Below are positions 27,421 through 64,000 of a stretch of DNA of 64,000 bases, in pieces. The position numbers were made by a program, and so were the translations under genes. The notes under the pieces were generated by a model. That model saw only the letters and a list, made by a program, of their open reading frames with translations. It had not been told where the DNA came from and did not search any database. How positions within the stretch are numbered: the first letter of the stretch is position 1; each line of letters starts with the position of its first letter. Source of the stretch: an uncultured Prolixibacteraceae bacterium (GTDB lineage Bacteria > Bacteroidota > Bacteroidia > Bacteroidales > FEN-979); NCBI GenBank assembly GCA_964642545.1, contig CAZXQU010000006.1, positions 1,534-65,533 of the forward strand. The letters run 5' to 3'.

Positions 27421-27503
27421 TGAGGTAGTGAGGTAGTGAGGTAGTGAGGTAGTAAAATGGTGAAATGGTGAAATAGCGAAACTGCCAACTGCCAACTGCC
27501 AAC
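27416..27503 (+). repeat. Composite array: (GGTAGTGA)x5, (AATGGTGA)x2, AATAGCGA, (AACTGCC)x3
   Basis: It fills the whole convergent spacer. The first unit contains the TAG stop of 26308..27420. The last units abut the stop of 27503..28516. Confidence 0.9.
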
Positions 27504-28516
27504 TAAAGTCGCTGGTATTCTATTGCTGGATAGCCTTTTTGCCCCAGTTCGTTATAGAAACCGACAAATCTGAGTTTGTAATAAAAGCCACTATGGTTAC
27601 GGATTACATAAGAGACACCAAGTGTAACAGTATAGCTTCCCGCTTCAAAATTGTAGTATTTCCAGTCGTACCCGATGGCATCCAGGTTGGAAGAGTAAAC
27701 CATTTGCTGGGCCATGTCGAAGTTGATCGTTGAAAAATCATTGAGTGTATCCTTAGCTACTTCTACTCCATTCCTGTTAACAAGGACTCCCGTTACAAGA
27801 TATGGATAAGCTTCTCCAAGATCTGTAAACAACAGGGTTGTATACTGAGTGAACAATAGATCCCAGTTGTTTTTCGGAGGTTGCAGGTTACGGATGGCAC
27901 CTCCTTCATCAAAACTGAAATAAAGGTAATTTACAGCAAAGTCTTTGGGAACCACTGCCAGTAACGGCACACCTCCAAGCAATGGAGCGAAGCGAAAATA
28001 GAAGTTGCCATTTTTCAGGCTATCGAAGATGACCTGCATATATCCCAAAGGATTTCCCGCATCATCAATCCCACGATTGATCGCATATACGTGCTGATTT
28101 GAAATGGTATCGCCATCAGAAGTAACGTCAAACCAGATGCCGATAGCCGTGGAATCGGGGTTCCCGTCAGAACGGTCGAACCACCATTTCAAGCCAATAG
28201 TATCCTGCGGTATCCCAAATGGCATGGCACCCAGATCGGCAGCATACATAAAATTTGCTGTATTCAATAAAACATGCCATCCATCCGCACTGCATTCAAA
28301 AGCCAGGTCGCTTTCCCTCTTTGGGTTGGTACTCACAGCGCCTATTGAATCGAGATTAAAGTAAATCTGGTATTTGTAGGTCTGGGTCATGGCGATGGTA
28401 TCGCTTTTAGCATCACCACGCGGGTGGGGTTCAACCATGTCATCTTCCTTGAAACATCCCGTCAGGAGTATCGTCAGGAAAAAAAAGTAAGACCAGACAG
28501 AGTTCAAACGTATCAT
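27503..28516 (-). CDS. Lipoprotein, HmuY-like (putative)
   Basis: Lipobox LLTGCF. It shares the NNWDLLFTQYTT...YPYLVTGVLVN block with the 30767..32032 protein and overlaps the TonB receptor gene by 4 nt. The HmuY assignment rests on context and the WDLxF motif only. Confidence 0.5.
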   Translation of the reverse strand: MIRLNSVWSYFFFLTILLTGCFKEDDMVEPHPRGDAKSDTIAMTQTYKYQIYFNLDSIGAVSTNPKRESDLAFECSADGWHVLLNTANFMYAADLGAMPFGIPQDTIGLKWWFDRSDGNPDSTAIGIWFDVTSDGDTISNQHVYAINRGIDDAGNPLGYMQVIFDSLKNGNFYFRFAPLLGGVPLLAVVPKDFAVNYLYFSFDEGGAIRNLQPPKNNWDLLFTQYTTLLFTDLGEAYPYLVTGVLVNRNGVEVAKDTLNDFSTINFDMAQQMVYSSNLDAIGYDWKYYNFEAGSYTVTLGVSYVIRNHSGFYYKLRFVGFYNELGQKGYPAIEYQRL

Positions 28517-35091: not shown

Positions 35092-36276
35092 ATGAGACAT
35101 TTAAAAAGTTTTCAAGGCAGGCAGCTAATGCTTGGTTTACTTTTATGCCACCTTAATTTGCCACAGTCGCAGATAACCCTCTCCGAAAATTGTGCCATAG
35201 CCGATAGTTGTCAGAATTCGGGTCAAAATGTCAGAATCCTCTTCTGGAATGTCGAAAACCTTTTTGACTATAAGGATGACACACTTACTGCCGACGAAGA
35301 GTTTACCGGCAACGGAGCTATGCATTGGAGTTATACGAAACTTCAGACAAAACTCGCGCATGTAGCCAAAGCCATCCTGGCTGCCGGAGAGTGGGACCCT
35401 CCTGTCATAATAGGCATGTGTGAGATTGAGAACCGATATGTGCTGAATAAACTGATTTACAATTCTCCTCTAAAGTCATCTGGATACCGGATCATTCACC
35501 GCAACTCCCCCGACAGCCGTGGTATCGATGTAGCCATGCTCTACCGTGCAGATGCATTTACCCCAATGTTTACCGAATGGATCACTATCAAATTCCCTTT
35601 CGACACCACTGCTACAACTCGGGATATACTCTATGCCAAAGGGATTCTGTTCGATTCAGATACCATCCATCTATTTGTCAACCACTGGCCATCAAGGCGT
35701 GGAGGAGAGGCGGCTTCTGCGCCGAGAAGGAATTATGTAGCGTCGGTACTGCGTGCGAAAATTGATTCCATTCTGAAAGCAGATACGCATTATACGATGC
35801 GCAATATGCGATACGCGATACACGATCAAAAGATACCTGATGCCAGATCCCTGATGCTGGATACCACATCTCAAATCGCAGATCCTTCACTCCTGATCAT
35901 GGGCGACTTCAACGATGAGCCTGAAAACGAGAGCCTGCAGAATATTCTGAAAGCGCGACTGGATGCAGGAGATCTGAAGCCCGGGGACCTGATTAACATG
36001 ATGCATCTGATGGTAAACAAAGAGGGCAGCCATAAATTCAGGGAACATTGGGGTTTGCTCGACCAGTTTATTGTCTCCGGCTCCCTCCTGGACAAACAAC
36101 ATCCGCTTCAGGTTGATCCCGGCAGTGTCCAGATATTCAAACCAGCTTTTCTTATGGAAGATGACCTGAAGTACCTAGGCACTAAACCCAAACGCACCTA
36201 CCTCGGACCGAGGTATAAGGGAGGGTTTTCGGATCATCTGCCTGTTGTGATGGAAATTAGGAAATTAGGAAATTAG
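35092..36276 (+). CDS. Endonuclease/exonuclease/phosphatase (EEP) family protein
   Basis: FWNVENLFD, MCEIEN, VNHWPSRRGG, GDFNDEP and SDHLPV motifs. The last codons (RKLGN) are encoded by a GGAAATTA array. Confidence 0.85.
   Translation: MRHLKSFQGRQLMLGLLLCHLNLPQSQITLSENCAIADSCQNSGQNVRILFWNVENLFDYKDDTLTADEEFTGNGAMHWSYTKLQTKLAHVAKAILAAGEWDPPVIIGMCEIENRYVLNKLIYNSPLKSSGYRIIHRNSPDSRGIDVAMLYRADAFTPMFTEWITIKFPFDTTATTRDILYAKGILFDSDTIHLFVNHWPSRRGGEAASAPRRNYVASVLRAKIDSILKADTHYTMRNMRYAIHDQKIPDARSLMLDTTSQIADPSLLIMGDFNDEPENESLQNILKARLDAGDLKPGDLINMMHLMVNKEGSHKFREHWGLLDQFIVSGSLLDKQHPLQVDPGSVQIFKPAFLMEDDLKYLGTKPKRTYLGPRYKGGFSDHLPVVMEIRKLGN
35782..35866 (+). repeat. Intragenic in-frame GAT-heptamer element (GATACGC ATTATAC GATGCGC AATATGC GATACGC GATACAC GATCAAAA GATACCT GATGCCA GATCCCT GATGCTG GATACCA)
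   Basis: Read directly. It encodes DTHYTMRNMRYAIHDQKIPDARSLMLDT inside the EEP protein. Confidence 0.8.
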
Positions 36277-36291
36277 GAAATTAGGAAAATA
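36252..36291 (+). repeat. (GGAAATTA)x4 plus GGAAAATA octamer array
   Basis: Read directly. It contains the TAG stop (36274-36276) of the EEP gene. Confidence 0.95.
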
Positions 36292-36314
36292 ATAAATTAA
36301 GGAAGGGGACGAGG

Positions 36315-36677
36315 ATGAAATTGGAAGAGTTGAAGATTTATCAGGTTGCCATGGAGATTGGCGAGGAAATCTGGAGAATAGTCAAGCCACTGGATTATTT
36401 TACAAAAGAAACTATTGGGAAACAAATCGTGAAGTCATCAGACTCAATTGCATCGAATATTAGCGAAGGCTATGGGAGGTTCCATTATCGCGAATCACGT
36501 ATGTTTTATTTTTATGCCAGAGGCTCCGCATTCGAAACCAAAACCTGGATAAAAAAGCTCTACAATCGAAGGAAGCTCAATGAAGAAGAGTATAAAAGAA
36601 TATATAACTTAATTGAATTTGAATGTGCTTCCCTAAACAACTATATAAAAACGGTGGGCCCAAAAGAAGCACATTGA
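36315..36677 (+). CDS. Four-helix-bundle protein (23S rRNA intervening-sequence protein / Avd-like family)
   Basis: 120 aa. Family-typical blocks LKIYQVAMEI, QIVKSSDSIASNISEGYGR, FYARGSAFETKTWI. Confidence 0.8.
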   Translation: MKLEELKIYQVAMEIGEEIWRIVKPLDYFTKETIGKQIVKSSDSIASNISEGYGRFHYRESRMFYFYARGSAFETKTWIKKLYNRRKLNEEEYKRIYNLIEFECASLNNYIKTVGPKEAH

Positions 36678-36695: not shown

Positions 36696-36727
36696 TAATT
36701 TCCTATTTTCCTAATTTCCTAACTCCC
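36696..36727 (-). repeat. Octamer array; sense (minus) strand reads GGGAGTTA GGAAATTA GGAAAATA GGAAATTA
   Basis: The plus strand reads TAATTTCC TATTTTCC TAATTTCC TAACTCCC. It abuts the TAG stop of the radical SAM gene and is inverted relative to 36252-36291. Confidence 0.9.
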
Positions 36728-37884
36728 TACCCCCACCTCCCCGCAATCGCATTTCCACAAAACCCACACTTCCCCTCCTTCAGGTTGTTTGTAAGGATCG
36801 TAAACCCCTTTCTTTCCAGGACCACTTTGTTGCATTTCGGACAATAGGTATTTTCGGCTTTGTTGTTTGGGACATTGCCGATGTAGACGTACTTGATGCC
36901 GGCTTTTTTTGCAATATCGTGAGCCTCTTCAAGGATTGCCAGAGGGGTGAACGGTAGATTGGTCAACTGATAGAGGGGGAAGAAGCGGCTAAAATGGAGC
37001 GGACAGTCTTCGAGTCCGTTGTCTACCAGCCATGTACACATCTCTCTGATCATCTCAGGTTTGTCGGTCCAGTTTGGAACAACCAGGTTGGTAATCTCCA
37101 GCCAGACACCCATTTCATGCAATATTTTCAATGTCCTCAGGATCGGCGCAAGATGTCCGCCATTCAGATTCTGATAGATCTCATCGGAAAATGACTTCAG
37201 GTTGATATTGGCGCCATCAATATAGACAGCCATGTCTCTCAACGGTTTTTCATTGATATAACCATTTGATACCAGGACGTTTTTAATCCCTCTCTGTCGG
37301 GCAAGTTTTGCAGAGTCAAACATATACTCATAAAATGCTATCGGTTCGGAATAAGTATATGCGATGGATAGGGCCCCACTGGCAACCGCCTCGTCAACCA
37401 GGACTTCAGGGAAGAGATCGTAGTTTTTGGTCTCACGCGGGCTCACCTGGGAGATCTCCCAGTTCTGGCAATTCAGGCATGCCAGGGTACATCCGGCAAT
37501 GGCCACAGAATATGCCCGCGAAGTAGGATAGAAATGAAAAAGGGGTTTCTTCTCAATCGGATCCACGTGAATGGAGCAGGGATTGCCATAACCAATCGTG
37601 TAAAGCTTCCCGTCCTTGGCAACTTTCGTGCGACAGAGGCTCTCATTCCCCTCGGTGAGGGTGCATTGGTTTGGGCAGATCAGGCACCTCACCCCTTTTG
37701 GGGTCACAATGCTATAGGGTGACTCTTTGCTGAACCGCCCCAATCCGCCATCCGGAATTCCTGTTTCACTATTCATACCTGTTATGTTTGCCAACGACTC
37801 CATTGAATTCAACCCAATAGCTGCTCCTCCTGCACCCAGAAGGCTCCGGCGAAGAAATTCCCGTTTGGATATCTTATGGCTCAT
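36727..37884 (-). CDS. AmmeMemoRadiSam system radical SAM enzyme with twin-arginine-like N-terminus
   Basis: CX3CX2C (GCTLACLNCQNW). N-terminal Cys cluster (CLICPNQC). C-terminal CPKC...CGFC. N-terminus MSHKISKREFLRRSLLGAGGAAIG. The longest ORF starts at 37917. Confidence 0.85.
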   Translation of the reverse strand: MSHKISKREFLRRSLLGAGGAAIGLNSMESLANITGMNSETGIPDGGLGRFSKESPYSIVTPKGVRCLICPNQCTLTEGNESLCRTKVAKDGKLYTIGYGNPCSIHVDPIEKKPLFHFYPTSRAYSVAIAGCTLACLNCQNWEISQVSPRETKNYDLFPEVLVDEAVASGALSIAYTYSEPIAFYEYMFDSAKLARQRGIKNVLVSNGYINEKPLRDMAVYIDGANINLKSFSDEIYQNLNGGHLAPILRTLKILHEMGVWLEITNLVVPNWTDKPEMIREMCTWLVDNGLEDCPLHFSRFFPLYQLTNLPFTPLAILEEAHDIAKKAGIKYVYIGNVPNNKAENTYCPKCNKVVLERKGFTILTNNLKEGKCGFCGNAIAGRWG

Positions 37885-37981: not shown

Positions 37982-38044
37982 TAATTTCCTAATTTCCTAA
38001 TTTCTCACCTCCAGGCTCCCTGACCTCCTGACTTCCTGACTCTT
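37982..38044 (-). repeat. Composite array; sense strand reads AAGAGTCA GGAAGTCA GGAGGTCA ... AGAAATTA GGAAATTA GGAAATTA
   Basis: The plus strand reads TAATTTCC TAATTTCC TAATTTCT ... TGACCTCC TGACTTCC TGACTCTT. It starts 3 nt after the stop of 38047..40176. Confidence 0.9.
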
Positions 38045-44622: not shown

Positions 44623-44693
44623 GATTTCCGATTTGGGATTTGAGATTTGAGACTTGGATATTATTTGTTATTTGTGATTTGTTATTTGATTAT
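44623..44693 (+). repeat. Heptamer arrays (GATTTCC GATTTGG GATTTGA GATTTGA GACTTGG) then (TTGTTAT TTGTGAT TTGTTAT)
   Basis: Read directly. It overlaps the last codons and stop of 44682..45386. On that gene's sense strand it is CA-rich, the opposite polarity to most arrays. Confidence 0.85.
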
Positions 44694-45386
44694 TGACCTA
44701 TCTGTATATTTCCCAATGTCTCTCCACTCCAGCGAGTTATCCATGTATCCCTTGATAAGATGATCTGATGCGAGTCTGATGTATAAATCTGTAAGCGAGA
44801 ATCTTCCTGTTTCAATCATCAATGAAAAGATTTCTGGCTGAAGAATTTGTATGCCGCTGAATGCGAGAGGATGCAACTCCTCACACTTCATGCTTATCCT
44901 CTTTTCACCGCTCTTTTTGTTTTCCCATCCGCAAAGCCTGTTCTTGTCATTAAACAGAAAATAACGAGAAGTTTCACGAGTACGGACTGCGAGTGTAGCA
45001 AGGGGCTTAACGAGTGCATGAGCCCTGGCCATCAGGCTGAGATCAAGATCGGAAAGGATATCTGCATTTCTAACGAGAAACGGCTTACCATCATCAAAAA
45101 ACCAGGAAGCCTTTTTCAGTCCACCGCCTGTCTCCAGCAACTCCTCTGATTCGTCGGAGATTGTAATGGACAAACCAAAATTATCATTCGCCCTGAGAAA
45201 ATCCCGAATCTGCGCAGGGAAGTGGTGTACATTGATGATGACATCCCGTATCCCGTATCGCTTAACGTGTTCCAGCGTATACTGCAGCAATGGTTTTCCC
45301 TCCACCACCACAAGTGCTTTGGGGATTGAATTTGTGATTGGCCGCAACCGCGTACCCAATCCCGCTGCAAGTATCATCGCTTTCAT
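44682..45386 (-). CDS. Sugar-1-phosphate nucleotidyltransferase, MurU-like
   Basis: N-terminus MILAAGLGTRLRPIT plus an NTP_transferase fold. Adjacent to an AmgK-like kinase gene. Confidence 0.8.
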   Translation of the reverse strand: MKAMILAAGLGTRLRPITNSIPKALVVVEGKPLLQYTLEHVKRYGIRDVIINVHHFPAQIRDFLRANDNFGLSITISDESEELLETGGGLKKASWFFDDGKPFLVRNADILSDLDLSLMARAHALVKPLATLAVRTRETSRYFLFNDKNRLCGWENKKSGEKRISMKCEELHPLAFSGIQILQPEIFSLMIETGRFSLTDLYIRLASDHLIKGYMDNSLEWRDIGKYTDRSIIK

Positions 45387-45388
45387 TT

Positions 45389-45474
45389 GTTCGCTGTTCG
45401 CTTTCCTAATTTCCTAATTTCTTAATTTCCCACATCCCTACTCTCATACTCTCATACCCTCAACCCTCTTACCC
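45389..45474 (-). repeat. Composite array filling the spacer; sense strand has GGTAAGAG GGTTGAGG (GTATGAGA)x2 ... (GGAAATTA-type)x3 ... (GCGAACA)x2
   Basis: The plus strand reads TGTTCGC TGTTCGC TTTCCTAA TTTCCTAA TTTCTTAA TTTCCCAC ATCCCTAC TCTCATAC TCTCATAC CCTCAACC CTCTTACC. Confidence 0.9.
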
Positions 45475-45476
45475 AT

Positions 45477-46964
<1,488 letters not shown>

Positions 46965-46972
46965 TCTACTTC

Positions 46973-47009
46973 CCTAATTTCCTAATTTCCTAATTTCGAA
47001 TTTCCTACC
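46973..47009 (-). repeat. Octamer array; sense strand reads GGTAGG AAATTCG AAATTAGG AAATTAGG AAATTAGG
   Basis: The plus strand reads CCTAATTT x3, then CGAATTT CCTACC. It abuts the TGA stop of 47010..50213. Confidence 0.9.
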
Positions 47010-53600: not shown

Positions 53601-55051
53601 ATCAGAGAGCCATTGACGGCGATATTTTTATAATTATACCCATTAAGTGCGGCAGAGTCGATATGCCCCTGCATCAGCAGGTCAGCGTTGTCGAATGAAA
53701 TACCCTGTCCATCCAGGTTAGCCCGCAGGGTGACCTTTCCAAAAAGTTCTGTGTCCTCAATCAGTATGCCCAAATTAAACGCGGTGATACTTAGTTCACC
53801 TTTGTAAGCCAGAGGGCCTCCTTTGGTTGGTTGCTTCAACTGAAGGTTTGTTGCTGCGGTTCCGATATCTGTATGAAATTCAGCCCGGGAAATAAAGTCA
53901 TCCATGAAACCCGTAAATTCACCATGGATATTGATTAAGCCAAGATTCGTTATGATTGATGGGATTGGCAAGGTATCAGGATCCCCTGGAATCCTGAATG
54001 AACGTATATCTTGGGCAGTTGACGTAAAATTATTGATTTTCATGTCAACATAAGTGGCCATGACATTGGGCAACCCAACAGCCTTAATATCTCCGTCGAA
54101 GAGGGTATTCTCGCCAAAACCAATTCGTAAGTTATGCGCATTGAACTTACTGACCGTACCTGCGATATCTCCCTCGAGATTGAAACGGTTGGTCATTTTT
54201 TTTACCTCAGGGGCAAAGAATCCGATATCGGTCATGTCAAACTCGGAGGGTTGGATATCAGCCTCAATCCTCACGAGTTTCAGGAAATCTGTAAAAGCGA
54301 CGAAGCCGTTGTACCGGAAAGCAAAATCAAGCTCAAGATTTGAGTTGTCGGTAACCAGTTTCAGCTTCTCCACCTCAATAAACTGGTCACAAACCCTGCA
54401 GTCGCCCTGAAAATCATGCAGATTAATTCCACTTCGTTCCTTTGCCGACAAACTGTTGATTGTCGCACACATTGTGTCACCTTCAATTCTGACGCCAGAG
54501 ATATCGAGGTTGATATTATCCACATCAATATTCGCGTAATCCATCCCTTCAGGTGCTGCAGGCTTGGTTTCATCCTGGTAGTGAAAACGGATTCCTTTCA
54601 GTTCGACATGATTGCAGATAATTGTAAATGGGGTTGTTGGCGCAGTGTCTGGCGGTTTTGGTATCGTGTCTTTGGATGCAAAATAATTGATTATATACTG
54701 AAGATTGAGGATGGAGTCTCCCTGATGCTTCAACAGCTGGAACTCTCCCTCACTGATCATAATCTTTTGCACCATGATATTTCTGCCGGACAGACTGAAC
54801 CAGATTGGCTTGACTCCAAGGATCTGTGCAGCAAATAGGGTTGTATCCAGATTGTCCTTCACCAGGATATCTTCAATGACCAGTCCGTTGTTGAAAGAGA
54901 TGTCGAATTTTCCAATACGAATTTCCGTACCAATTTCTTTTGTAAGATAATCAGCAGCCAGTTTAGCTGAAAGGCTTTGGACCCATGTATCGCGCAATAC
55001 AAGAGTTACAGTCATGATCAGTGAGATCAGGACCGTTAACAGATAGGCCAA
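50615..55051 (-). CDS. tamB: Translocation and assembly module protein TamB
   Basis: 1478 aa, N-terminal TM anchor, long beta-rich body, and a C-terminal DUF490-like end (DINIEYILTKNRRWRIRAFNR). Apparent TTG start. Confidence 0.85.
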   Translation of the reverse strand: MAYLLTVLISLIMTVTLVLRDTWVQSLSAKLAADYLTKEIGTEIRIGKFDISFNNGLVIEDILVKDNLDTTLFAAQILGVKPIWFSLSGRNIMVQKIMISEGEFQLLKHQGDSILNLQYIINYFASKDTIPKPPDTAPTTPFTIICNHVELKGIRFHYQDETKPAAPEGMDYANIDVDNINLDISGVRIEGDTMCATINSLSAKERSGINLHDFQGDCRVCDQFIEVEKLKLVTDNSNLELDFAFRYNGFVAFTDFLKLVRIEADIQPSEFDMTDIGFFAPEVKKMTNRFNLEGDIAGTVSKFNAHNLRIGFGENTLFDGDIKAVGLPNVMATYVDMKINNFTSTAQDIRSFRIPGDPDTLPIPSIITNLGLINIHGEFTGFMDDFISRAEFHTDIGTAATNLQLKQPTKGGPLAYKGELSITAFNLGILIEDTELFGKVTLRANLDGQGISFDNADLLMQGHIDSAALNGYNYKNIAVNGSLIRKKFFGDVTVDDPNLQFTFHGMANVSDSLPIFNFDARIAHAQLFNLHLLERDSIEIFSAFIEADFSGNTIDNADGTLNLHDISYWEGRNRAVIDSLLLRTISDSSGKTVYEVRSDLLDADFTGEFEFSKLVPSVITFIQKYMASFEMRSDSTRKYHHSGQKLNYRVEFKKTADITAIFLPFLEISPGAFLEGNYNEDKKLLSLTGRSDVLHIRGMDLENWFVDAEAHTDDLSLQTGCDQLIMNKSRPTDTVYVQLDMLLLTSSIRHDSILYKVSSDSGEDYSYLQGFLTFQEEGSVKIKLDDLDLKLAGNSWSISKENYVILDTALMEFHDLSFTSGNQMLSLNGRVTHHEVDTLDLEFNGVDVSQLDYLLSNPNVDVDGILSGSLKITDIYNELSIYSDLKLDNFIFNKQHLGDAVFQVNYNQTEGKFDVLSEIIYTGNIGQNIPFSLQGSIFTNKPEAHFDLDLKLKNLNLKMLQPFVASFMSKLTGLASGEVKITGTLNEPSLQGELNLMRTEFKINYLNVPYSLSEVIQIKPDKFDFDNIVLYDSLGNKAYLNGSIDHNYFKDIRLNLAISMDDFSAFKNTYAQNSTFFGNARASGKVSITGPLDNIVVDVVASTGNNTHVTIPISLTQGVGQVDYIVFKQSVQDSLEEVKGSSRIHPSTGLTLALSLDVKSDAQVEVLFPDQLGNIKATGTGNLSMGMTPTTPFNLFGSYYIYKGSFLFQMKNLIRLPFAIKEGSSISWTGDPTNATISLSAIYKTKVPLTGLSSETSSVQGRIPVECIIRLNGKLMNPVMSFGLELPNAQANERNLVFNAIDTNNTAEMTQQVLYILVMNQFKPVAGGAGGSVDVSSTSLSIVTNQINSWLSGMTQNLNIGVNYNPGSSTTSQDIDMTVSTQLFDDRLLIDGTFGMSSYKNTTSAQASTIVGDINIEYILTKNRRWRIRAFNRTNTIDLLNNNAPYTQGVGISYQRDFYTWRELIKKSNTKKQTPTDK

Positions 55052-55074
55052 TATTTTTCCTGCTGTTTTTATCT

Positions 55075-55082
55075 TATTTTTG
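55075..55082 (+). promoter_or_regulatory. Candidate Bacteroidota -7 box (TATTTTTG) for tsaD
   Basis: It fits TAnnTTTG and lies 27 nt upstream of the tsaD ATG. Confidence 0.35.
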
Positions 55083-55108
55083 CTTTTTGCAAACTGATCT
55101 TACTATTT

Positions 55109-56182
55109 ATGTCCCTGCCCTTTATCCTAGGTATTGAATCCTCTTGTGATGACACTTCTGCATCTGTGGTGGAAGGCACCATCGTTCGATCAAATGTGAC
55201 TGCCACCCAGGATATCCACAGGAAATTTGGGGGAGTAGTCCCGGAGCTGGCATCCCGTGCTCATCAGCAAAATATCATACCCGTAATTGAAGCCGCAATC
55301 CAACAAGCAAATATAGATAAAAATCAGCTTGCTGCAGTGGCTTTTACACAGGGTCCGGGGCTACTTGGATCGTTGCTTGTAGGATCATCTTTTGCAAAGA
55401 GTTTTGCCCTCGGAATGGGCATCCCACTCATCGAGATTGACCATATGCAAGCCCATATCCTGGCACACTTTCTGGAAGATCTTGAAAAGCCACGCCCCAT
55501 CCCAGAATTTCCTTTCCTCTGCCTGACTGTCTCAGGTGGACATACACAGATCGTCCTGGTTAAGGACTACTTCGAAATGGAGGTTTTAGGGCAAACGATT
55601 GATGATGCGGCCGGGGAGGCGTTTGATAAAACCGCCAAGATCCTTGGGCTTCCTTATCCAGGAGGGCCAGTTATTGATAAACTTGCAGCTAAAGGTTATC
55701 CCTCCCGTTTTTCATTCGCCCGTCCCAATATCCCGGGCCTTGATTACAGCTTCAGTGGTCTCAAAACTTCAATTCTCTATTTCATTCGGGATGAGCTGAG
55801 AAAGGATCCAGAATTTATTGAGAAAAACAGGAATGACCTTTGCGCTTCGATCCAGACAACGATTGTAGAGATCTTAATGTCGAAGTTAAAGTTGGCAGTT
55901 CAAGCGATACGCGATACACGATACGCGATATACAATGACCAGATGCCTGATCCCGGATCACAAACCATTGATGTTGCAATCGCCGGCGGGGTTTCGGCCA
56001 ACTCGGCTCTGCGTAAAGCGCTTCTGGAGGCAGCGGCTTCGGAGGGTTGGCGTGCCTTTATCCCTCCATTTGAATATACAACCGATAATGCCGCAATGAT
56101 TGCTGTAGCTGGGTATTTCAAGTTTATTAAGGGTGAATTTGCCCTTCAATCAACAACATCTTATGCAAGGAGCAGATGGTGA
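55109..56182 (+). CDS. tsaD: tRNA N6-adenosine threonylcarbamoyltransferase TsaD
   Basis: ILGIESSCDDT, GGVVPELASRAH, SGGHTQ, DDAAGEAFDKTAKILGLPYPGGP, AGGVSAN and TDNAAMIA motifs. It is about 19 aa longer than typical because of a repeat insertion. Confidence 0.95.
   Translation: MSLPFILGIESSCDDTSASVVEGTIVRSNVTATQDIHRKFGGVVPELASRAHQQNIIPVIEAAIQQANIDKNQLAAVAFTQGPGLLGSLLVGSSFAKSFALGMGIPLIEIDHMQAHILAHFLEDLEKPRPIPEFPFLCLTVSGGHTQIVLVKDYFEMEVLGQTIDDAAGEAFDKTAKILGLPYPGGPVIDKLAAKGYPSRFSFARPNIPGLDYSFSGLKTSILYFIRDELRKDPEFIEKNRNDLCASIQTTIVEILMSKLKLAVQAIRDTRYAIYNDQMPDPGSQTIDVAIAGGVSANSALRKALLEAAASEGWRAFIPPFEYTTDNAAMIAVAGYFKFIKGEFALQSTTSYARSRW
55906..55962 (+). repeat. Intragenic in-frame GAT-heptamer element (GATACGC GATACAC GATACGC GATATAC AATGACCA GATGCCT GATCCCG GATCACA)
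   Basis: 57 nt. It encodes IRDTRYAIYNDQMPDPGSQ immediately before the conserved AIAGGVSAN strand of TsaD. Confidence 0.9.
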
Positions 56183-56232
56183 GAACGAAGGACGAGGGAA
56201 GAGGGAATAGGGAATAGGGAGTAAGGAAGTTA
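56183..56232 (+). repeat. Heptamer array (AACGAAG GACGAGG GAAGAGG GAATAGG GAATAGG GAGTAAG GAAGTTAG)
   Basis: It starts directly after the tsaD TGA stop. It contains four GGG tracts with 4-nt loops (56195-56218). Confidence 0.9.
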
Positions 56233-56285
56233 GAAAATTATCATATCAAAAATTAGTTTATCTTTGATGTAATAAAATATCCTTT

Positions 56286-56972
56286 ATGAGAAATCGCATC
56301 TTCACATCCATTCTTTTCTTAGCCGGTATCATGCTGGCAATGACGGGCTGTAAGAAAGATCAATCCCTGGATCAGAATATTCCCACTGACGAACAAATCA
56401 CGATCCTGATTGATCAATCGTGGAACAGGATGGCATCAGAAGGACTTTTCCCTGAAAATCCTTCTCTTGGAATCGAGATGCTGAACGAGGGAATTGCCCC
56501 TGATTTCCTGCTGGATGAAACCTATTTTGAGGATGCCCCACCAGCAACTGAGACAAATCATGCCAACTGGTATTCCATCCGGGATCATTCGTTCATCCAA
56601 TGCCTGCGTGGCATCCAGCTCTCTGAAGAGCAAACTGCAGGAGTTCGTCATAATATCAGAGAGTATGCATCATGTAAAGAAGATGCGCTTCAGCGAGCCC
56701 GTAGCATTTACCGCGAACTTAGAGCTGAGTATCATCAACGTTTTCAGAGGTTAGTCAATGCGTACAGGAATGGCACGCTTACCGAAAGGGAATTCCATCA
56801 GAAAGTAGCCGAACTCAGGAGTGATTTCCGCAATGAGCTACGTCAGTTACATCTTCGCGAAAGTTTGGACGACGCTTTCAAAAATTGTCTTCGAGTATGT
56901 ATGCGTGAACTTCATGGAATACTGACCGAGAGGCACTGGAATGCGTTTGTGGAATGCTATCGGGGTTTGTAA
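56286..56972 (+). CDS. Hypothetical lipoprotein
   Basis: Lipobox LAMTGCKKD. Helical, charged C-terminal half. No family recognised. Confidence 0.6.
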   Translation: MRNRIFTSILFLAGIMLAMTGCKKDQSLDQNIPTDEQITILIDQSWNRMASEGLFPENPSLGIEMLNEGIAPDFLLDETYFEDAPPATETNHANWYSIRDHSFIQCLRGIQLSEEQTAGVRHNIREYASCKEDALQRARSIYRELRAEYHQRFQRLVNAYRNGTLTEREFHQKVAELRSDFRNELRQLHLRESLDDAFKNCLRVCMRELHGILTERHWNAFVECYRGL

Positions 56973-56984
56973 ACCATAATTCTC

Positions 56985-57671
56985 TTGACCTTCATCAACA
57001 TTCCCACCGAACAAACAACAGCAGTTACAGATGTTCTGCTAGCATTGGTCGCCGCCTCTGTTTGCTTACTCACACTGAAAGCCGGGGCCATAAACAACGC
57101 AAAAAAAGGCAAGATATGGGGCTGGGCTTTCGGATTGCTCGCTTTTGCAGCGCTAACAGGAGCTATAGCACACGGGTTCCAGATGTCAAAGGAACTCAAT
57201 TACATCCTGTGGCAACCGTTGAACCTGGCTCTCGGACTTACCGTCTCGTTGTTTGTTGTGGGTGTCATCTTAGATTTAACCACTGGTTCCCTGCCAAAGT
57301 ACCTCCTCCCGCTGATGATCAGTATCGGGACCTTGTTCTATCTGGTCACCCTATTTTTCCCTGGCTCCTTCCTGGTTTTCATTCTATACGAAGCCGTTGC
57401 AATGTTGTTTTCACTGGTGGTTTATATAGTTCTTTCAACCCGGCATCGCTTGCAAGGGGCATCCCTTATGGCAGCCGGGATCCTGATCACCATCATTGCG
57501 GCAGGCATCCAGGCTAGTGAGGCAGTTCACTTCCAGTGCATCTGGGAGTTCGACCACAATGGAATATTTCACCTCGTCCAGATTATCGGTTTACTGGTTT
57601 TATATGCAGGACTTAGGTTGGACCTCAGGGACGAAAGACGAGGGATGAAAGACGAAGGACGTAAAACGTAA
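56985..57671 (+). CDS. Hypothetical polytopic membrane protein
   Basis: About 7 hydrophobic helices. TTG start. The C-terminal tail DLRDERRGMKDEGRKT is encoded by a heptamer array. Confidence 0.6.
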   Translation: MTFINIPTEQTTAVTDVLLALVAASVCLLTLKAGAINNAKKGKIWGWAFGLLAFAALTGAIAHGFQMSKELNYILWQPLNLALGLTVSLFVVGVILDLTTGSLPKYLLPLMISIGTLFYLVTLFFPGSFLVFILYEAVAMLFSLVVYIVLSTRHRLQGASLMAAGILITIIAAGIQASEAVHFQCIWEFDHNGIFHLVQIIGLLVLYAGLRLDLRDERRGMKDEGRKT

Positions 57672-57727
57672 GAGGTGAGACGTGAGAGGTGAGACGTGGG
57701 AAGTGGAATGTGGGATGTGATATTTGG
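57630..57727 (+). repeat. 14-unit heptamer array (GACGAAA GACGAGG GATGAAA GACGAAG GACGTAA AACGTAA GAGGTGA GACGTGA GAGGTGA GACGTGG GAAGTGG AATGTGG GATGTGA TATTTGG)
   Basis: Read directly. It spans the last 14 codons (13 sense codons plus the TAA stop) of 56985..57671 and the convergent spacer beyond. Confidence 0.9.
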
Positions 57728-57738
57728 AAGTTCTTTCA

Positions 57739-58002
57739 TTATATCGTTTTTTCACTGTCTGCGTGACAGCGGCACTCCGCATAGCTCCGTTTCTTTGCTT
57801 TTTCCATTGCTTCCATACCCTCTTTCACTGAGAACCAAATCAGGCCTGCAGCGCCAATGGCATCTATGTAGGCAAAACCAAATAGAGCAAGAGTTTCATC
57901 CGAATAACCCAGCGTTATGGAGATAATTCCCTCCACAAGGTTATATAGAATGGTAAAAAGCGCAAGGTAAAAAGCAAATCGGAACAGTTTTTTAATGCGC
58001 AT
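57739..58002 (-). CDS. Hypothetical small membrane protein (87 aa), possibly a gene remnant
   Basis: Two hydrophobic segments, no recognisable family. It is bracketed by inverted copies of GTGAGACGTGAGA. Confidence 0.3.
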   Translation of the reverse strand: MRIKKLFRFAFYLALFTILYNLVEGIISITLGYSDETLALFGFAYIDAIGAAGLIWFSVKEGMEAMEKAKKRSYAECRCHADSEKTI

Positions 58003-58008
58003 AATTTT

Positions 58009-58064
58009 CAGTCAGCAATCAACAGTCAGCAGTCAAGATTCTCACGTCTCACGTTTCAGGTTTA
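58009..58064 (+). repeat. Heptamer array (CAGTCAG CAATCAA CAGTCAG CAGTCAA GATTCTC ACGTCTC ACGTTTC AGGTTTA)
   Basis: Read directly. The ACGTCTC units are the reverse complement of the GAGACGT units at 57672-57699. Confidence 0.85.
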
Positions 58065-58074
58065 CCACATTAGG

Positions 58075-58094
58075 CACAATAGTTCACAATAGTT
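58075..58094 (+). repeat. Direct 10-nt duplication (CACAATAGTT)x2
   Basis: Read directly. Confidence 0.8.
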
Positions 58095-58126
58095 CTACTG
58101 TGTCCTATGTGCCAGTTGTGGTAACT

Positions 58127-58158
58127 TTCCTAATTTCCTAATTTCCTAATTTCCTAAT
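58127..58158 (-). repeat. Octamer array; plus strand (TTCCTAAT)x4, sense strand (ATTAGGAA)x4
   Basis: It abuts the TAG stop (58159-58161) of the esterase gene. Confidence 0.95.
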
Positions 58159-59127
58159 CTACCTCTTCCCTCTCACGTCCCTCAGCGCTTTACAGCAATC
58201 TGCCAGCGCCTTTTCGGCTTTAGGCATCACCTTGCCAAAAATCACGAAGTCGTGGATCTGGCCTGGATAGATTTTCATACAAGCGTTTACACCAGCTTCC
58301 TGAAGCCGTTTCCCATATGCTTCCGCTTCATCCCGGAGGATGTCAAATTCGGCAATCACAATAAAGGACGGGGGTAGGTCCGACAGGTTGCTGGCAAGCA
58401 GAGGGGATACATAAGGATTTCCAATGTCTGCCAAATTCTCCAGGTAATAACTTGTATACCACTTCATCAACTCCTCAGGGACCCATATCCCAAATCCAAA
58501 TTGCTTGTATGAGAGGGTATTTGTGTCTTTCAGGTTGGTTGCGGGGCAAATCAGGAGCTGAAATTGTATTGAGGGACCTTTTCTGTCGCGGGCCATCATG
58601 GCGATAACAGTGGCCATATTCGCTCCTGCACTATCACCTCCCACAACTATCCTGTCAGGGTCCACGTTCATTGCATCAGACTGGTCAGCAAGCCATTCCA
58701 GCGTGGCATAACCCTCCTCAATAGCAACCGGAAACCGGGCTTCAGGGGAGAGTTGGTAATCAACAGATACGACTAGATAACCCGAGTCAGCACATAAAAT
58801 CGTACATACCGCGTCATAATCATCAAGCGTACCAACTACCCATCCCCCACCATGAAGGTAGAGAAGCACGGGGAAGGGACCCTCGCCTTCTGGAGTGTAA
58901 ACCCGTATGGGGATCTCTCCGAAAGGTCCATCAATCATCATATCCCGCATCGATGCAACAGGGACCGGTTTCAAAGAGAATGCTTTAACAATGTTCTTTT
59001 CCCGAGCCAATTGTGGTGTCAGTTCAGACAAAGGTGGAAGACCTGCAGCCGCAATTGCTGTAAGAAATTGTTCGGCCCTGGGGTCCAGTTCCCCACTCTG
59101 GTAAGAGGGGTAAAAAATATCAGTCAT
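58159..59127 (-). CDS. Alpha/beta hydrolase, hormone-sensitive-lipase-type esterase
   Basis: HGGGW oxyanion motif, GDSAGA nucleophile elbow, and C-terminal DxL...HDF. Confidence 0.85.
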   Translation of the reverse strand: MTDIFYPSYQSGELDPRAEQFLTAIAAAGLPPLSELTPQLAREKNIVKAFSLKPVPVASMRDMMIDGPFGEIPIRVYTPEGEGPFPVLLYLHGGGWVVGTLDDYDAVCTILCADSGYLVVSVDYQLSPEARFPVAIEEGYATLEWLADQSDAMNVDPDRIVVGGDSAGANMATVIAMMARDRKGPSIQFQLLICPATNLKDTNTLSYKQFGFGIWVPEELMKWYTSYYLENLADIGNPYVSPLLASNLSDLPPSFIVIAEFDILRDEAEAYGKRLQEAGVNACMKIYPGQIHDFVIFGKVMPKAEKALADCCKALRDVRGKR

Positions 59128-61315: not shown

Positions 61316-64000
61316 CTATAACTCCAACTCCAGTTGCTCGTCGCTCTTCGCTTTTCGCTCTTCGCTGGTTTCGGGTTCGGGGTTCGGGTTTTGAGTTTCG
61401 GGGTTCGGGTTTTGGGTTTCGGGAGCTTTCGGTTTTCGTCCGCGCTTTTTTACGTCTTTCACTTCCTCTTCTACCCTCGTCTCTCTACCCTCGTCCTTCT
61501 TCGCTCTTCCTTCTTCCTTCATCCCTCTTCCCTCGTCCTTCATCCCTCTTCCTTCGTCCCTCGTCCCTCGTCCTTCGTCCCTCGTCTCTCCTCCCTCGTC
61601 CTTCGTCTCTTCCTGCTCACTGTCAACTATTATCGGTTCCAACCAATTCAGTTTCTTTACCGGATAACTTGTGAGCCGTTTCCCTTTTGCCTTGTAACCT
61701 TTAACACCAATGAATTCCTCAACATTGACCTCCTCTTGATCAGCTCCTTTGCTCTTCTGTTTCATGTCAAAAAGAATCTGCAACTGGGGTCGGAAGTCAA
61801 TCGAAAGAGAAAAAAACTGGTCGGCACTGTCAATAAATTCTAGTTTTTTCTCAGTTGGCTCAGGGATAAACCGCTTGATGAAGTACTGTTTTGTTTTGGG
61901 ATCCTGATAGATTATGGTATAAACTCTTTGGGGATCATATTTTTCGATCCGGAGCATATCCTCATCGAAGTGCGAAGAGAGATCAAACGAACTAAATCTA
62001 TAGTGCCCTAACCGACTGAAAATAATGATCCTGTCGGCTCCCGAGAACGCTCCCAACAATGTTCCCCTCTCTTCTGTATTCAGTCTCATCACGGTATCAT
62101 CATACCATATTTTGAGAGACCCCAACGTAGAGACCCCTTCCTGCCGGATCTCGATTTTTTTAATTGCGTATTTTGTGAGTGTATTCCCAATGGAATTGCG
62201 TCCTTTAATTGCAAGATCGGCGAAATTGAAATCGAAGGAATTCTTTTTGATTCTGGGTTTAGGCTTCAGGTCCACTTTCACCACTTCTGCCTCTCCATTT
62301 GGATTCGCTGAAAAATACAGCACTTTGGACCCTGAAGTGCCCTTGGTTACAGTATATTCTTTATCGCGGGTAACTCCGGGAACAGCAAACCGCTTTACCA
62401 TAATTTTACCATTCTTACCATCCCTGTATATCAGGTTATAGATCGTCCGGTTATCATTCTTCATAAAAACCTGAATATGGATCACATCATGGCCAATAAA
62501 CACCTTGTCGGCCACTTTGGTCACCATAAAGGTCCCATCACTTCTGAAAACAATGATATCATCGATATCTGAACAATCACAAACAAACTCGTCGCGACGA
62601 AGGGAGGTGCCTGCAAAACCCTGCTCCCGGTTGATATAGAGTTTCTCATTGGCCGCAGCGACTTTTACGGCTTCGATAGACTCAAAATTCCGAAGTTCGG
62701 TACGTCTGTCGCGCTCTTTCCCATATTTCTTCCGTATCTGGCGAAAATGATCTATGGCATATTCGGTCAGGTAGGCGAGGTGATTTTTCACCACTTCCAT
62801 CTCTTCCCGGATGCCGTTTATAACATCATCGGCTTTGTTGGAGTTGAATTTTGAAATCCGTTCAATCGGTATCTTACGGAGCCGTTTGATATCATCATCG
62901 CTCAAAGGCCGGATAAACTCATGTTCAAATGGTTTCATCCCCTTTCTGATGGCTTTATCTATCTCTTCGTCCGTTTTGCATTTCTTGATTCCTTCGTAAA
63001 CCTCATTCTCGATGAATATCTTTTCGATAGAGGCATAATGCAACTGTTCGTTCAGCTCGTTCAGCCGAATTTCCAGCTCCTTCTTCAGCAGGTGAACCGT
63101 ATGACCGGTCGATATCCGTAAAATTTCGGAGACTCCTACAAAGCGTGGTTTGCCATCCTCAATGATACAGCAATTCGCAGAGATAGGAATCTCGCATTGC
63201 GTAAAGGCATAGAGGGCATCCATGGTTGTATCGGGGGAGACACCGGGGGCAAGGTGAATAAGAATCTCAACATTTCTTGCCGTGTTGTCATCAATCTTCC
63301 GAATCTTGATCTTTCCTTTGTCGTTGGCTGTCAGGATGGACTCGATCACCGACTCCGTGGTGGTTCCATAAGGGATCTCACTGATTACCAGTGTCTTTTT
63401 ATCCAACAAGCTTACCTTTGCTCTCAACCGGATCTTGCCACCCCGCAGGCCTTCGTTGTATTTTGAAACATCAGCCAACCCGCCCGTAGGAAAATCCGGA
63501 AAAAGTTCAAATTCCTTTCCCTGCAATACCTTGATGGATGCCTCAATCAGCTCATTGAAGTTGTGCGGTAGGATCTTGGATGCCAGCCCAACAGCAATTC
63601 CTTCCACTCCCATTGCAAGCAACAGAGGGAACTTGACCGGAAGAGTAATTGGTTCTTTGTTTCTTCCGTCGTAGGAGGCTTTCCAGTTTGTTGTCTTCGG
63701 ATTGAATACTACATCCAGGGAAAATTTTGATGGCCTTGCTTCGATATAACGGGGAGCTGCAGCGCTGTCGCCGGTATGGATATTTCCCCAGTTTCCCTGG
63801 GTGTCGATTAACAGATCTTTTTGTCCAAGTTGCACGAGGGCATCCCCAATGGAGGCATCCCCATGTGGGTGATATTTCATCGTGTGTCCGATGATATTGG
63901 CAACTTTATTGTATCGCCCGTCATCTAGTTCCTTCATGGCATGAAGAAGCCTCCGCTGCACCGGCTTAAGTCCATCGAGAATTTCAGGCACCGCCCGTTC
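61316..64000 (-). CDS. parC: DNA topoisomerase IV subunit A (ParC-type), N-terminus outside window, with repeat-encoded C-terminal tail
   Basis: DGLKPVQRRLLHAM, HPHGDASIGDALV, a type IIA breakage-reunion domain and a beta-pinwheel CTD. The frame is open to the window edge. The ParC rather than GyrA call rests on HPHGDASI and the lack of a GyrA box. Confidence 0.8.
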   Translation of the reverse strand, partial: ERAVPEILDGLKPVQRRLLHAMKELDDGRYNKVANIIGHTMKYHPHGDASIGDALVQLGQKDLLIDTQGNWGNIHTGDSAAAPRYIEARPSKFSLDVVFNPKTTNWKASYDGRNKEPITLPVKFPLLLAMGVEGIAVGLASKILPHNFNELIEASIKVLQGKEFELFPDFPTGGLADVSKYNEGLRGGKIRLRAKVSLLDKKTLVISEIPYGTTTESVIESILTANDKGKIKIRKIDDNTARNVEILIHLAPGVSPDTTMDALYAFTQCEIPISANCCIIEDGKPRFVGVSEILRISTGHTVHLLKKELEIRLNELNEQLHYASIEKIFIENEVYEGIKKCKTDEEIDKAIRKGMKPFEHEFIRPLSDDDIKRLRKIPIERISKFNSNKADDVINGIREEMEVVKNHLAYLTEYAIDHFRQIRKKYGKERDRRTELRNFESIEAVKVAAANEKLYINREQGFAGTSLRRDEFVCDCSDIDDIIVFRSDGTFMVTKVADKVFIGHDVIHIQVFMKNDNRTIYNLIYRDGKNGKIMVKRFAVPGVTRDKEYTVTKGTSGSKVLYFSANPNGEAEVVKVDLKPKPRIKKNSFDFNFADLAIKGRNSIGNTLTKYAIKKIEIRQEGVSTLGSLKIWYDDTVMRLNTEERGTLLGAFSGADRIIIFSRLGHYRFSSFDLSSHFDEDMLRIEKYDPQRVYTIIYQDPKTKQYFIKRFIPEPTEKKLEFIDSADQFFSLSIDFRPQLQILFDMKQKSKGADQEEVNVEEFIGVKGYKAKGKRLTSYPVKKLNWLEPIIVDSEQEETKDEGGETRDEGRGTRDEGRGMKDEGRGMKEEGRAKKDEGRETRVEEEVKDVKKRGRKPKAPETQNPNPETQNPNPEPETSEERKAKSDEQLELEL
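61337..61612 (-). repeat. Intragenic heptamer arrays forming the parC 3' end: sense GACGAGG/GAAGAGG/GATGAAG units, then CCGAAAC/CCAAAAC/CCGAACC units, then CGAAGAG/CGAAAAG units
   Basis: Read directly. It encodes RDEGRGT-type 7-aa repeats, PETQNPN repeats and the EERKAKSDEQ tail. Confidence 0.9.

Follow-up and report, generated by a model that had tools for sequence, protein, structure and literature searches.

A heptanucleotide tandem repeat read in frame inside tsaD of an uncultured Bacteroidota clade

In the interior of essential genes, tandem repeats should be excluded when their unit length cannot be divided by three. Here we describe a heptanucleotide array within tsaD, the gene for tRNA N6-adenosine threonylcarbamoyltransferase, on a 64,000-nucleotide stretch of DNA from an uncultured Prolixibacteraceae bacterium (contig CAZXQU010000006.1, positions 1,534 to 65,533 of the forward strand), termed the window below. 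Heptanucleotide simple sequence repeats (SSRs) have precedents in bacteria, with a minority of the copies inside genes (PMC4692102, PMC4679880). According to these two papers, long SSRs (LSSRs) have units of 5-11 nt, among which heptamers are the commonest (Mrazek, Guo and Shah, 2007), and the first of them also refers to the heptameric short tandemly repeated repetitive (STRR) sequences of the cyanobacterium Calothrix PCC 7601. For the GGGNATC-type heptamers, 83% of the repeats are positionally conserved between two Xanthomonas species, and intragenic copies account for 7-11% in Xanthomonas species; in Nostoc, 68% of the copies are intergenic and roughly one third intragenic (Rehm et al., 2015; PMC4692102). 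That study included no analysis of encoded peptides or protein sites. Direct repeats of another heptamer, TAACTGA, occur in Beggiatoaceae, Cyanobacteria and five Bacteroidetes (MacGregor, 2015; PMC4679880), and the SSRs of phase-variable contingency loci, with tetra-, penta- or heptanucleotide units, are found in coding regions of host-adapted pathogens (PMC2651432, PMC4692102).

The feature in tsaD is probably an intragenic, in-frame heptanucleotide SSR of the LSSR or STRR kind, located at a permissive loop of the protein, changed by slippage and filtered for reading frame and stop codons. It is one local case of a lineage-specific, genome-wide bloom of 7- and 8-nt tandem repeats. The host open reading frame (ORF; 55109-56182, forward strand) encodes 357 amino acids (aa) plus a stop codon, is intact and contains the catalytic motifs HMQAH (residues 112-116), AIAGGVSAN (290-298) and TTDNAAM (324-330). 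A profile search identified its product as full-length TsaD by the equivalog family TIGR03723 (383 bits against a cutoff of 296.1), and solved TsaD/YgjD chains in the PDB matched it in phmmer at E ~1e-76 (~6e-76 for the TsaD chains). In an alignment of 41 sequences, H112, H116, A290-N298 and D326, which belong to the metal and nucleotide motifs HxxxH, GGVSAN and TDN, are invariant. The protein is predicted from its sequence to act with TsaB and TsaE as the transferase for N6-threonylcarbamoyladenosine (t6A). Its translation includes the peptide KLKLAVQAIRDTRYAIYNDQMPDPGSQTIDVAIAGGVSAN, and the TsaD peptide quoted in an earlier note, which had been made from the letters of this DNA, agrees with it exactly.

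The array comprises about eight 7-nt units at 55906-55961, begins ~800 nt into the gene and encodes I267-Q285. In the GAT register, its first part (55906-55933, forward strand) reads GATACGC GATACAC GATACGC GATATAC and is translated in frame as I267-Y275 (IRDTRYAIY); it is supported by Tandem Repeats Finder, by a direct repeat (D1), by pattern statistics and by the model. The second part (55934-55961, forward strand) reads AATGACC AGATGCC TGATCCC GGATCAC, encodes approximately N276-Q285 (NDQMPDPGSQ) and was recognized by homology and pattern statistics. The units are imperfect. The first four are clear, with neighbours matching at 5-6 of 7 positions, and so are the three xGATxCC-type units (5/7 matches), whereas one junction unit is degenerate (3/7). 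Tandem Repeats Finder sees only the first half (55904-55930, period 7, 3.9 copies, 90% matches, score 47); the second half is homologous to the GATGCCG/GATCCCG arrays of relatives. Counted at no more than 3 mismatches, the 17-mer GATACGCGATACACGAT from the array has 15 matches in the window against 0.10 expected, and the pattern AGATGCCTGATCCCGGATC of the second half has 3 against 0.04, so both halves stand far above chance. The earlier note had ascribed about 19 extra residues, compared with E. coli TsaD, to the eight-unit block. Their origin from the block was borne out; their number was too high, as the extra segment measures 17 aa against E. coli TsaD (gaps of 3, 12 and 2 in the phmmer alignment, between a long helix and a strand) and also 17 aa against the 23-aa connection that forms the Bacteroidota baseline.

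Heptamer DNA was present at this site of tsaD in each of the seven close relatives read (7/7; 74-85% aa identity), with differing units and lengths. L081 has degenerate GATAC-type units only; L083 has three AATTACG and six GATCCCG/A units; L085 has GATAGGG and GATACGG; and L087 has GATACGG/GATTCGG together with GATGCCG ... GATCCCG. L088 contains GATGCCG and GATCCCG, L089 eight GATACCG/GATGCCG units, and L090 three GATCCCG and three AATCGTA units. Two more distant relatives extend the picture: L212 holds AGTCCTC in 5.7 copies plus an octamer, and L211 (protein P0024) holds five copies of the 12-nt repeat GGCTGACCCCCG at 3289-3350, encoding a DPRA... peptide. The TsaD loop site therefore accepts repeats of periods other than 7 as well. 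The site is filled throughout the clade by arrays that keep changing in unit type and length, and all tsaD arrays merge at their end into GAT GTn codons.

The region around the arrays is otherwise colinear. Between the window and its closest relative, L081, nucleotide identity is 82% over 5.4 kb, with only three indels of at least 4 nt: 36 nt at 55932-55967, taking in most of the second part of the tsaD array and being the only such indel in tsaD; 23 nt in a heptamer array starting at the tsaD stop codon; and 14 nt in an intergenic spacer. The arrays are thus the length-variable spots of this region. The first indel amounts to the loss or gain of half the tsaD array, and two close relatives lack half of the insert. 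The array behind the stop codon (56182-56229, forward strand) consists of units of the GGACGAG/GGAAGAG family in sense orientation, and arrays of the same family lie 3' of the tsaD stop in L085, L087, L088 and L212 as well. At this array, a contig from run X6 (given as marine sediment) is shorter by exactly one 7-nt unit, at 56202, whereas the lake-water runs agree with the window; this deletion is a direct unit-step length polymorphism.

The ratio of nonsynonymous to synonymous divergence (dN/dS) of tsaD against the seven relatives is 0.03-0.08 over 336 gap-free codons, so the gene is under strong purifying selection, and the synonymous divergence (dS) ranges from 0.75 to more than 4, which means that synonymous sites are largely saturated. 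Despite this, perfect runs such as four GATGCCG or four AGTCCTC units occur in the arrays. Near-perfect units at a divergence where an inherited repeat would have decayed indicate that the tsaD arrays are continually renewed. The tsaD repeat thus behaves as an SSR that resides in place and undergoes continual turnover.

Mechanistically, the comparison of relatives indicates that the arrays gain and lose units, and slipped-strand mispairing would be the step that alters copy number. Variants with one unit more or less would arise, shift the frame and be purged by selection because tsaD is needed; any net length change within the gene would have to keep the frame, as the 36-nt difference from L081 does. 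The encoded peptide IRDTRYAIYNDQMPDPGSQ would have no function of its own and would merely be tolerated. LSSR and STRR repeats, as far as the cited accounts portray them, consist of head-to-tail 7-nt units, show a period-7 excess in particular lineages only, are mostly intergenic and vary in copy number between relatives, with slippage as the proposed mechanism. Here we find the same head-to-tail 7-nt units, a period-7 excess and unit-step changes (7 nt at 56202, and 8 and 24 nt in octamer arrays). Against those accounts, the present case differs in that octamers are enriched too, that the host is an uncultured Bacteroidota clade and that the tsaD copy lies in frame inside a conserved catalytic domain, where units of a length not divisible by three would not be expected.

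The earlier note had regarded the block as a discrete element inserted into tsaD. This did not hold, as the block has no terminal inverted repeats, target-site duplication, fold or fixed-length consensus, and all close relatives carry differing heptamer arrays at the site, with a 12-nt repeat in one lineage. We likewise rejected an element resembling miniature inverted-repeat transposable elements or Rickettsia palindromic elements (RPEs): there are no inverted repeats in 55850-56020, the predicted RNA fold of the array is not significant (z = +0.78), no flanking direct repeat or target-site duplication was found at the array, array copies in the window range from 17 to 84 nt with differing architectures and without a fixed length or consensus, and no more than a 17-mer is common to the tsaD copy and the one in the nuclease gene described below. 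By the description in PMC10969869, RPEs resemble the tsaD array in placing repeated DNA in frame into unrelated housekeeping genes at fold-compatible positions; as described there, they differ in having ~150-bp units, a conserved family consensus and palindromic ends.

Next, we compared the loop between DLCASIQ and AIAGGV in 103 TsaD homologues. It falls into a canonical class of 23 aa, a large second class of 30 aa and the window clade (74-85% aa identity) with 28-54 aa, where the extra residues show a 7-aa periodicity (SRIPDPG, RIPDAGC/RMPDAGY). In all 67 readable Bacteroidota reference genomes (67/67; no more than 65% identity; Sphingobacterium, Pedobacter, Chryseobacterium and Lentimicrobiaceae among them), the connection is uniformly 23 aa and its DNA non-repetitive. 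A loop of similar length and sequence across Bacteroidota, encoded by non-repetitive DNA, would have spoken against the repeat origin proposed in the earlier note, and these genomes show no such loop. The permissiveness that the note had ascribed to the site is upheld by loop lengths of 22-54 aa under a dN/dS of 0.03-0.08, and this natural range under purifying selection is better evidence of a permissive site than structure.

The second length class is an observation in its own right: 42 of the 103 homologues (among P0019-P0096) have a loop exactly 7 aa over the baseline, with the pattern ...ELRRxxPGxxLPDV. In the one member read at the DNA level, L210, the loop DNA is non-repetitive and the locus has no heptamer arrays. 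The 7 extra residues may be what is left of three former heptamers (21 nt), or they may be a structured extension of unrelated origin. The conserved P-D-V codons of L210, CCGGATGTT, hold 6 of the 7 bases of a GATGCCG unit in this one sequence. We also considered whether ancestral T-G-I codons (ACN GGN ATH) resembling ACGGGAT had served as a proto-seed; as GGGAT occurs at these codons in 1 of 67 baseline genes and ACGGGAT in none (0/67), the idea was dropped.

An AlphaFold2 model built on 41 homologues (mean predicted local distance difference test score, pLDDT, 83; predicted TM-score, pTM, 0.83) has the ASKHA fold and matches the YgjD/TsaD structures 3zet_B and 4ydu at TM ~0.8. In this model, helix 236-270 extends into the insert (I267-T270), a short helix covers 272-275, residues 273-282 have pLDDT <50, and the strand 288-291 (DVAI) leads into the nucleotide-binding strand AIAGGVSAN. 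The insert is thus modelled as a helix extension followed by a low-confidence, flexible loop at a helix-to-strand junction, in line with the earlier note, which had placed it in a loop just before an ASKHA-fold strand. The model would be consistent with a surface loop away from the tRNA, TsaB and TsaE interfaces. In the TsaB2D-tRNA complex of T. maritima, the tRNA contacts are the first turn of alpha7 (FSFSGLK), which binds the D-stem, the beta8-alpha5 loop and the alpha1-alpha2 hairpin (PMC13276492). From alpha7, the D-stem binder, the chain continues into the next helix, and the insert sits at the distal end of that one. This location bears on the idea that the loop is a selected, lineage-specific addition contacting tRNA, TsaB, TsaE or another partner, with the repeat being only its mode of origin. 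The occupation of the site throughout the clade despite saturated synonymous divergence would fit such a function, as would the richness of the inserts in Arg, Asp and Pro. On the other hand, no insert residue is conserved while lengths vary from 28 to 54 aa, half of the insert was lost in two close relatives, the pLDDT is below 50, like inserts occur in unrelated enzymes and most Bacteroidota manage with 23 aa. We therefore regard a selected function of the loop as improbable.

Assemblies easily go wrong at repeats, and the window derives from metagenomic material, so one may ask whether the repeat was wrongly assembled or whether this tsaD is an additional copy in decay. This reading is effectively refuted. 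The array region was assembled identically, with zero differences, in contigs from five independent metagenome runs, and the identical TsaD protein is recorded on 4 contigs. The intact ORF retains all invariant TsaD residues under the low dN/dS given above, synteny with tamB is kept in all relatives fetched, and one metatranscriptome contig covers 55110-55267 in the 5' part of tsaD, with the array outside its span.

Translation has left its trace on the arrays. The pure repeat units inside ORFs are all free of stop codons in the sense orientation; GATACGC yields DTRYAIR and GATCCCG yields DPGSRIP. In L090 (2570-2637), the AATCGTA part of the tsaD array contains TAA out of frame in two units, whereas the third unit, in which it would be in frame, reads CAA, a single-base signature of selection on the translated repeat. 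Whichever strand and frame it is read in, the octamer GGAAATTA (= TAATTTCC) gives a stop codon, and its six arrays in the window are without exception intergenic. A translation filter is thus visible, by which only stop-free units and a frame-keeping total length survive within ORFs. The TAACTGA repeats show a related behaviour, since orientation-dependent stops set the placement of their arrays and the 'reverse' copies occur in ORFs, mostly at protein peripheries (PMC4679880). They differ in the unit set and in that their cases within ORFs concern mainly hypothetical proteins or termini (PMC4679880), whereas the tsaD array is internal to an essential enzyme and traceable across the clade.

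Could the array act as nucleic acid instead, by forming a G-quadruplex or hairpin, by binding a protein and so setting the pace of transcription or translation, or as a phase-variation switch? The Xanthomonas and Nostoc heptamers GGGNATC and GGGGA(T/C)T are similar to the units GGGATAC and GGGATCC found here; for related GGGNATC heptamers, G-quadruplex formation and positioning with respect to the ends of ORFs have been described (PMC4692102). The tsaD arrays of L085 and L087, with GGGATAC units, contain four GGG tracts on the sense strand and would qualify as G-quadruplex repeats by comparison with that work. The tsaD copy of the window has lost its G-tracts (GATACGC/GATACAC): 55906-55961 contains no GGG on the sense strand, a single CCC and no four-tract run on either strand, so no quadruplex is possible. 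Two other arrays inside ORFs of the window do fold strongly. One, of GATACGG units followed by an inverted copy (11841-11922, forward strand), lies in frame in a PPDK_N/PEP-utilizer gene (9957-12488), and the pair (11835-11930) folds into a long hairpin of -38 kcal/mol (z = -5.4). The other (45860-45929, reverse strand) is an in-frame array of GATAYGC and 5.6 copies of inverted GGGATAC in the linker of a gene with APH and RapZ_C domains (45477-46964, reverse strand); its pair (45850-45935, reverse strand) forms a long hairpin of -28 kcal/mol (z = -6.1). Given the insignificant fold of the tsaD array, hairpin structure is a property of some copies, not of the repeat family they share. Rfam returned no family in 54500-58500 at E values up to 1.

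The switch variant has a parallel in the phase-variable contingency loci, where a non-triplet SSR in a coding sequence shifts the frame as its unit number changes (PMC2651432, PMC4692102). Those repeats are perfect, near the 5' end and in dispensable surface genes, whereas the tsaD array is imperfect, far from the start and in an essential gene. Imperfect units suppress switching, no length variants or out-of-frame alleles of the tsaD array were seen in the five runs (assembled contigs, which drop rare variants), and switching off an essential t6A enzyme is implausible as a strategy. A role of the tsaD array as nucleic acid is accordingly very improbable, more so than a selected loop.

The wider distribution of the arrays was assessed with a simple lag-match detector against shuffled sequence (window GC content 0.45, with 95% in long ORFs by a greedy map). 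Periods 7 and 8 are enriched in the window, with 21 and 13 arrays against ~0.2 in shuffles, while periods 3-6 and 9-12 stay at background level with 0-2 arrays. The same analysis found no preference for period 7 or 8 in 532 kb from 80 distant Bacteroidota. The host clade consists of uncultured Bacteroidota, placed near Bacteroidales/Lentimicrobiaceae-like lineages, with genomes littered with 7- and 8-nt arrays. The 34 arrays of periods 7 and 8 in the window draw on few units. The GATACGS family accounts for seven of them, all inside ORFs; by Pfam, its hosts are tsaD, an endonuclease/exonuclease/phosphatase (EEP) nuclease, the PPDK_N/PEP-utilizer gene, a nucleotidyl transferase and the APH plus RapZ_C gene. 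In the nucleotidyl-transferase gene (44682-45386, reverse strand), the array is short, in frame and of GATACGG type (45243-45259, reverse strand). The GGACGAG family contributes four arrays at or over gene 3' ends, like the Xanthomonas and Nostoc repeats, which occur on the sense strand no more than ~50 bp behind stop codons (PMC4692102).

The EEP nuclease offers a second case. Its gene (35092-36276) contains an in-frame array at 35782-35865 (forward strand), which splits the Pfam domain PF19580 into two stretches. EEP homologues outside the clade have no insert before the strand ILIMGDFNDEP, whereas the clade proteins carry from +0 to ~+75 aa of heptamer-coded peptide at this helix-to-strand junction. 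The unit types differ here as well: GATACGC-type heptamers in the window, octamers of ACCTCATC in L213, and CAGTCGG heptamers plus octamers in L214. The genome of P0005/P0124 (L083, L214) has GATCCCG in tsaD and CAGTCGG in the EEP gene, and we do not claim strict genome-wide homogenization of the units.

Several observations weigh against our account of the tsaD array as an SSR changed by slippage. The 36 nt that separate it from L081 do not make up a whole number of 7-nt units, and no +/-7 variants were found for the tsaD array itself in assembled contigs, which drop rare variants. As set out for the helix after alpha7, the loop may also contact tRNA or a partner. The EEP and tsaD arrays share the exact 17-mer and the order of their parts (GATACGC-type, then xGATxCC-type). 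At the EEP site, the arrays of the window and L213 are wholly different (heptamers against octamers) while the flanking DNA is 83% identical, an exchange that suggests replacement more than drift. Among 62 arrays from 11 clade genomes, 21 families were counted by single linkage at 1 mismatch, which may chain families and makes the count approximate; three families hold 34 of the arrays, whereas for a pair of random heptamers, the chance of agreement within 1 mismatch is only 1.8%. Finally, more than 119 metagenome contigs, with GC contents of 0.31-0.70, contain GATACGC arrays. This small, shared set of units suggests a seeding of arrays more specific than generic slippage, and slippage explains the change in copy number, not the small vocabulary.

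We speculated that arrays are seeded or copied into new places from a few 7-8-nt units by a dedicated process with sequence specificity, with the tsaD array being a collateral landing that survives as the loop tolerates it. A very small mobile element, gene conversion from array to array or a templated repeat-adding activity would be candidates, and slippage would then explain only the later changes in copy number. The points of the preceding paragraph that favour such a process are the limited unit set common to unrelated loci and genomes, the common 17-mer and part order, the full replacement at the orthologous EEP site and the spread over contigs of very different GC content. In addition, L212 has a related unit both in its tsaD and, 1.7 kb from there, in an intergenic array, and MacGregor (2015) noted that heptamers related to TAACTGA are rarely repeated, with no evident mechanism (PMC4679880); like GATACGC here, TAACTGA is one favoured heptamer at many loci and across phyla. 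On the opposite side, the tsaD copy has none of the terminal repeats, target duplication or fixed length of an element, no candidate enzyme was identified in the 64-kb window, and the same-family arrays kept after the tsaD stop fit residence in place. The vocabulary count is approximate, and selection for stop-free units or hydrophilic peptides, as well as sequence-dependent slippage rates, could also narrow the vocabulary. On balance, we consider the dedicated process unlikely as the source of the tsaD array, albeit the most plausible of the alternatives; it keeps this standing because the GATACGC vocabulary adds to the earlier puzzle of TAACTGA and GGGNATC (PMC4679880, PMC4692102). In its general form, namely that a dedicated process in several bacterial phyla writes the 7- and 8-nt arrays with a limited, heritable set of units, the proposal is equally tentative. 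If true, it would mean that permissive loops of housekeeping enzymes are recurrently overwritten as hypervariable peptide cassettes, as in TsaD, the EEP nuclease and MnmA-, UvrA-, PriA- and PNPase-like ORFs of other metagenomic bacteria. In-place SSR turnover remains our preferred account of the tsaD array.

Among the metagenome contigs, some GATACGC arrays are in frame in these MnmA-, UvrA-, PriA- and PNPase-like ORFs (L099, L107, L118, L137/L153 and L116), which were recognized by motifs by eye; likewise by eye, the UvrA-like array precedes LFSFN...GACPxCxG and the PriA-like array lies just before LLFGPAGSGKT. Arrays of GATACRCGATACRCGAT (L091-L170) often adjoin other heptamer arrays, namely CGTGAAA, GCGATAA and GACGTTT. 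Within the window, the six intergenic GGAAATTA arrays are located at 36252-36304, 36696-36729, 37982-38004, 45402-45430, 46966-47007 and 58126-58158. In all six, GGAAATTA is the sense-strand reading, directly at or behind a stop codon; the next start follows several of these arrays at a distance of 2-16 nt. Two of them, in inverted orientation, flank a small ORF (36315-36677), the counterpart of which in the syntenic L213 matches PF05635 (23S_rRNA_IVP); the array pair is kept in L213 with lengths differing by 8 and 24 nt. GGACGAG/CCCTCGT arrays run into ORF 3' ends at 61474-61607, 12436-12457 and 57627-57719 as candidate C-terminal tails, and the longest of this type, with 19 units, lies within the last ~100 codons of a DNA_topoisoIV (GyrA/ParC-like) ORF (61316-63991, reverse strand). 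A short GATGCCK-type array lies antisense (24492-24511, reverse strand) in a PGA_cap-domain gene (23661-25448, reverse strand). Between convergent genes, a 90-nt intergenic block (27415-27504) combines five copies of AGGTAGTG, 2.5 of AAATGGTG, one AAATAGCG and 3.6 of AACTGCC; the AGGTAGTG unit recurs as CACTACCT-like units in an intergenic array of L212 and in the EEP ORF of L214.

Heptamer SSRs themselves are already known; what is unusual is the setting, in frame and in the interior of an essential enzyme. A heptamer array is resident in the catalytic domain of a universal tRNA-modification enzyme throughout a clade, with its sequence and length still changing. Annotators of these metagenome-assembled genomes should take unusual low-complexity loops in conserved proteins as real and not as assembly errors. 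From the arrays one obtains, for TsaD and a second enzyme, a map of where insertions are naturally tolerated, together with a comparative system for the birth, turnover and selective filtering of heptamer repeats by frame, by stops and down to a single unit with an in-frame stop. They also offer a concrete way into the long-standing puzzle that scattered lineages of bacteria repeatedly have arrays of particular heptamers but not of neighbouring ones.

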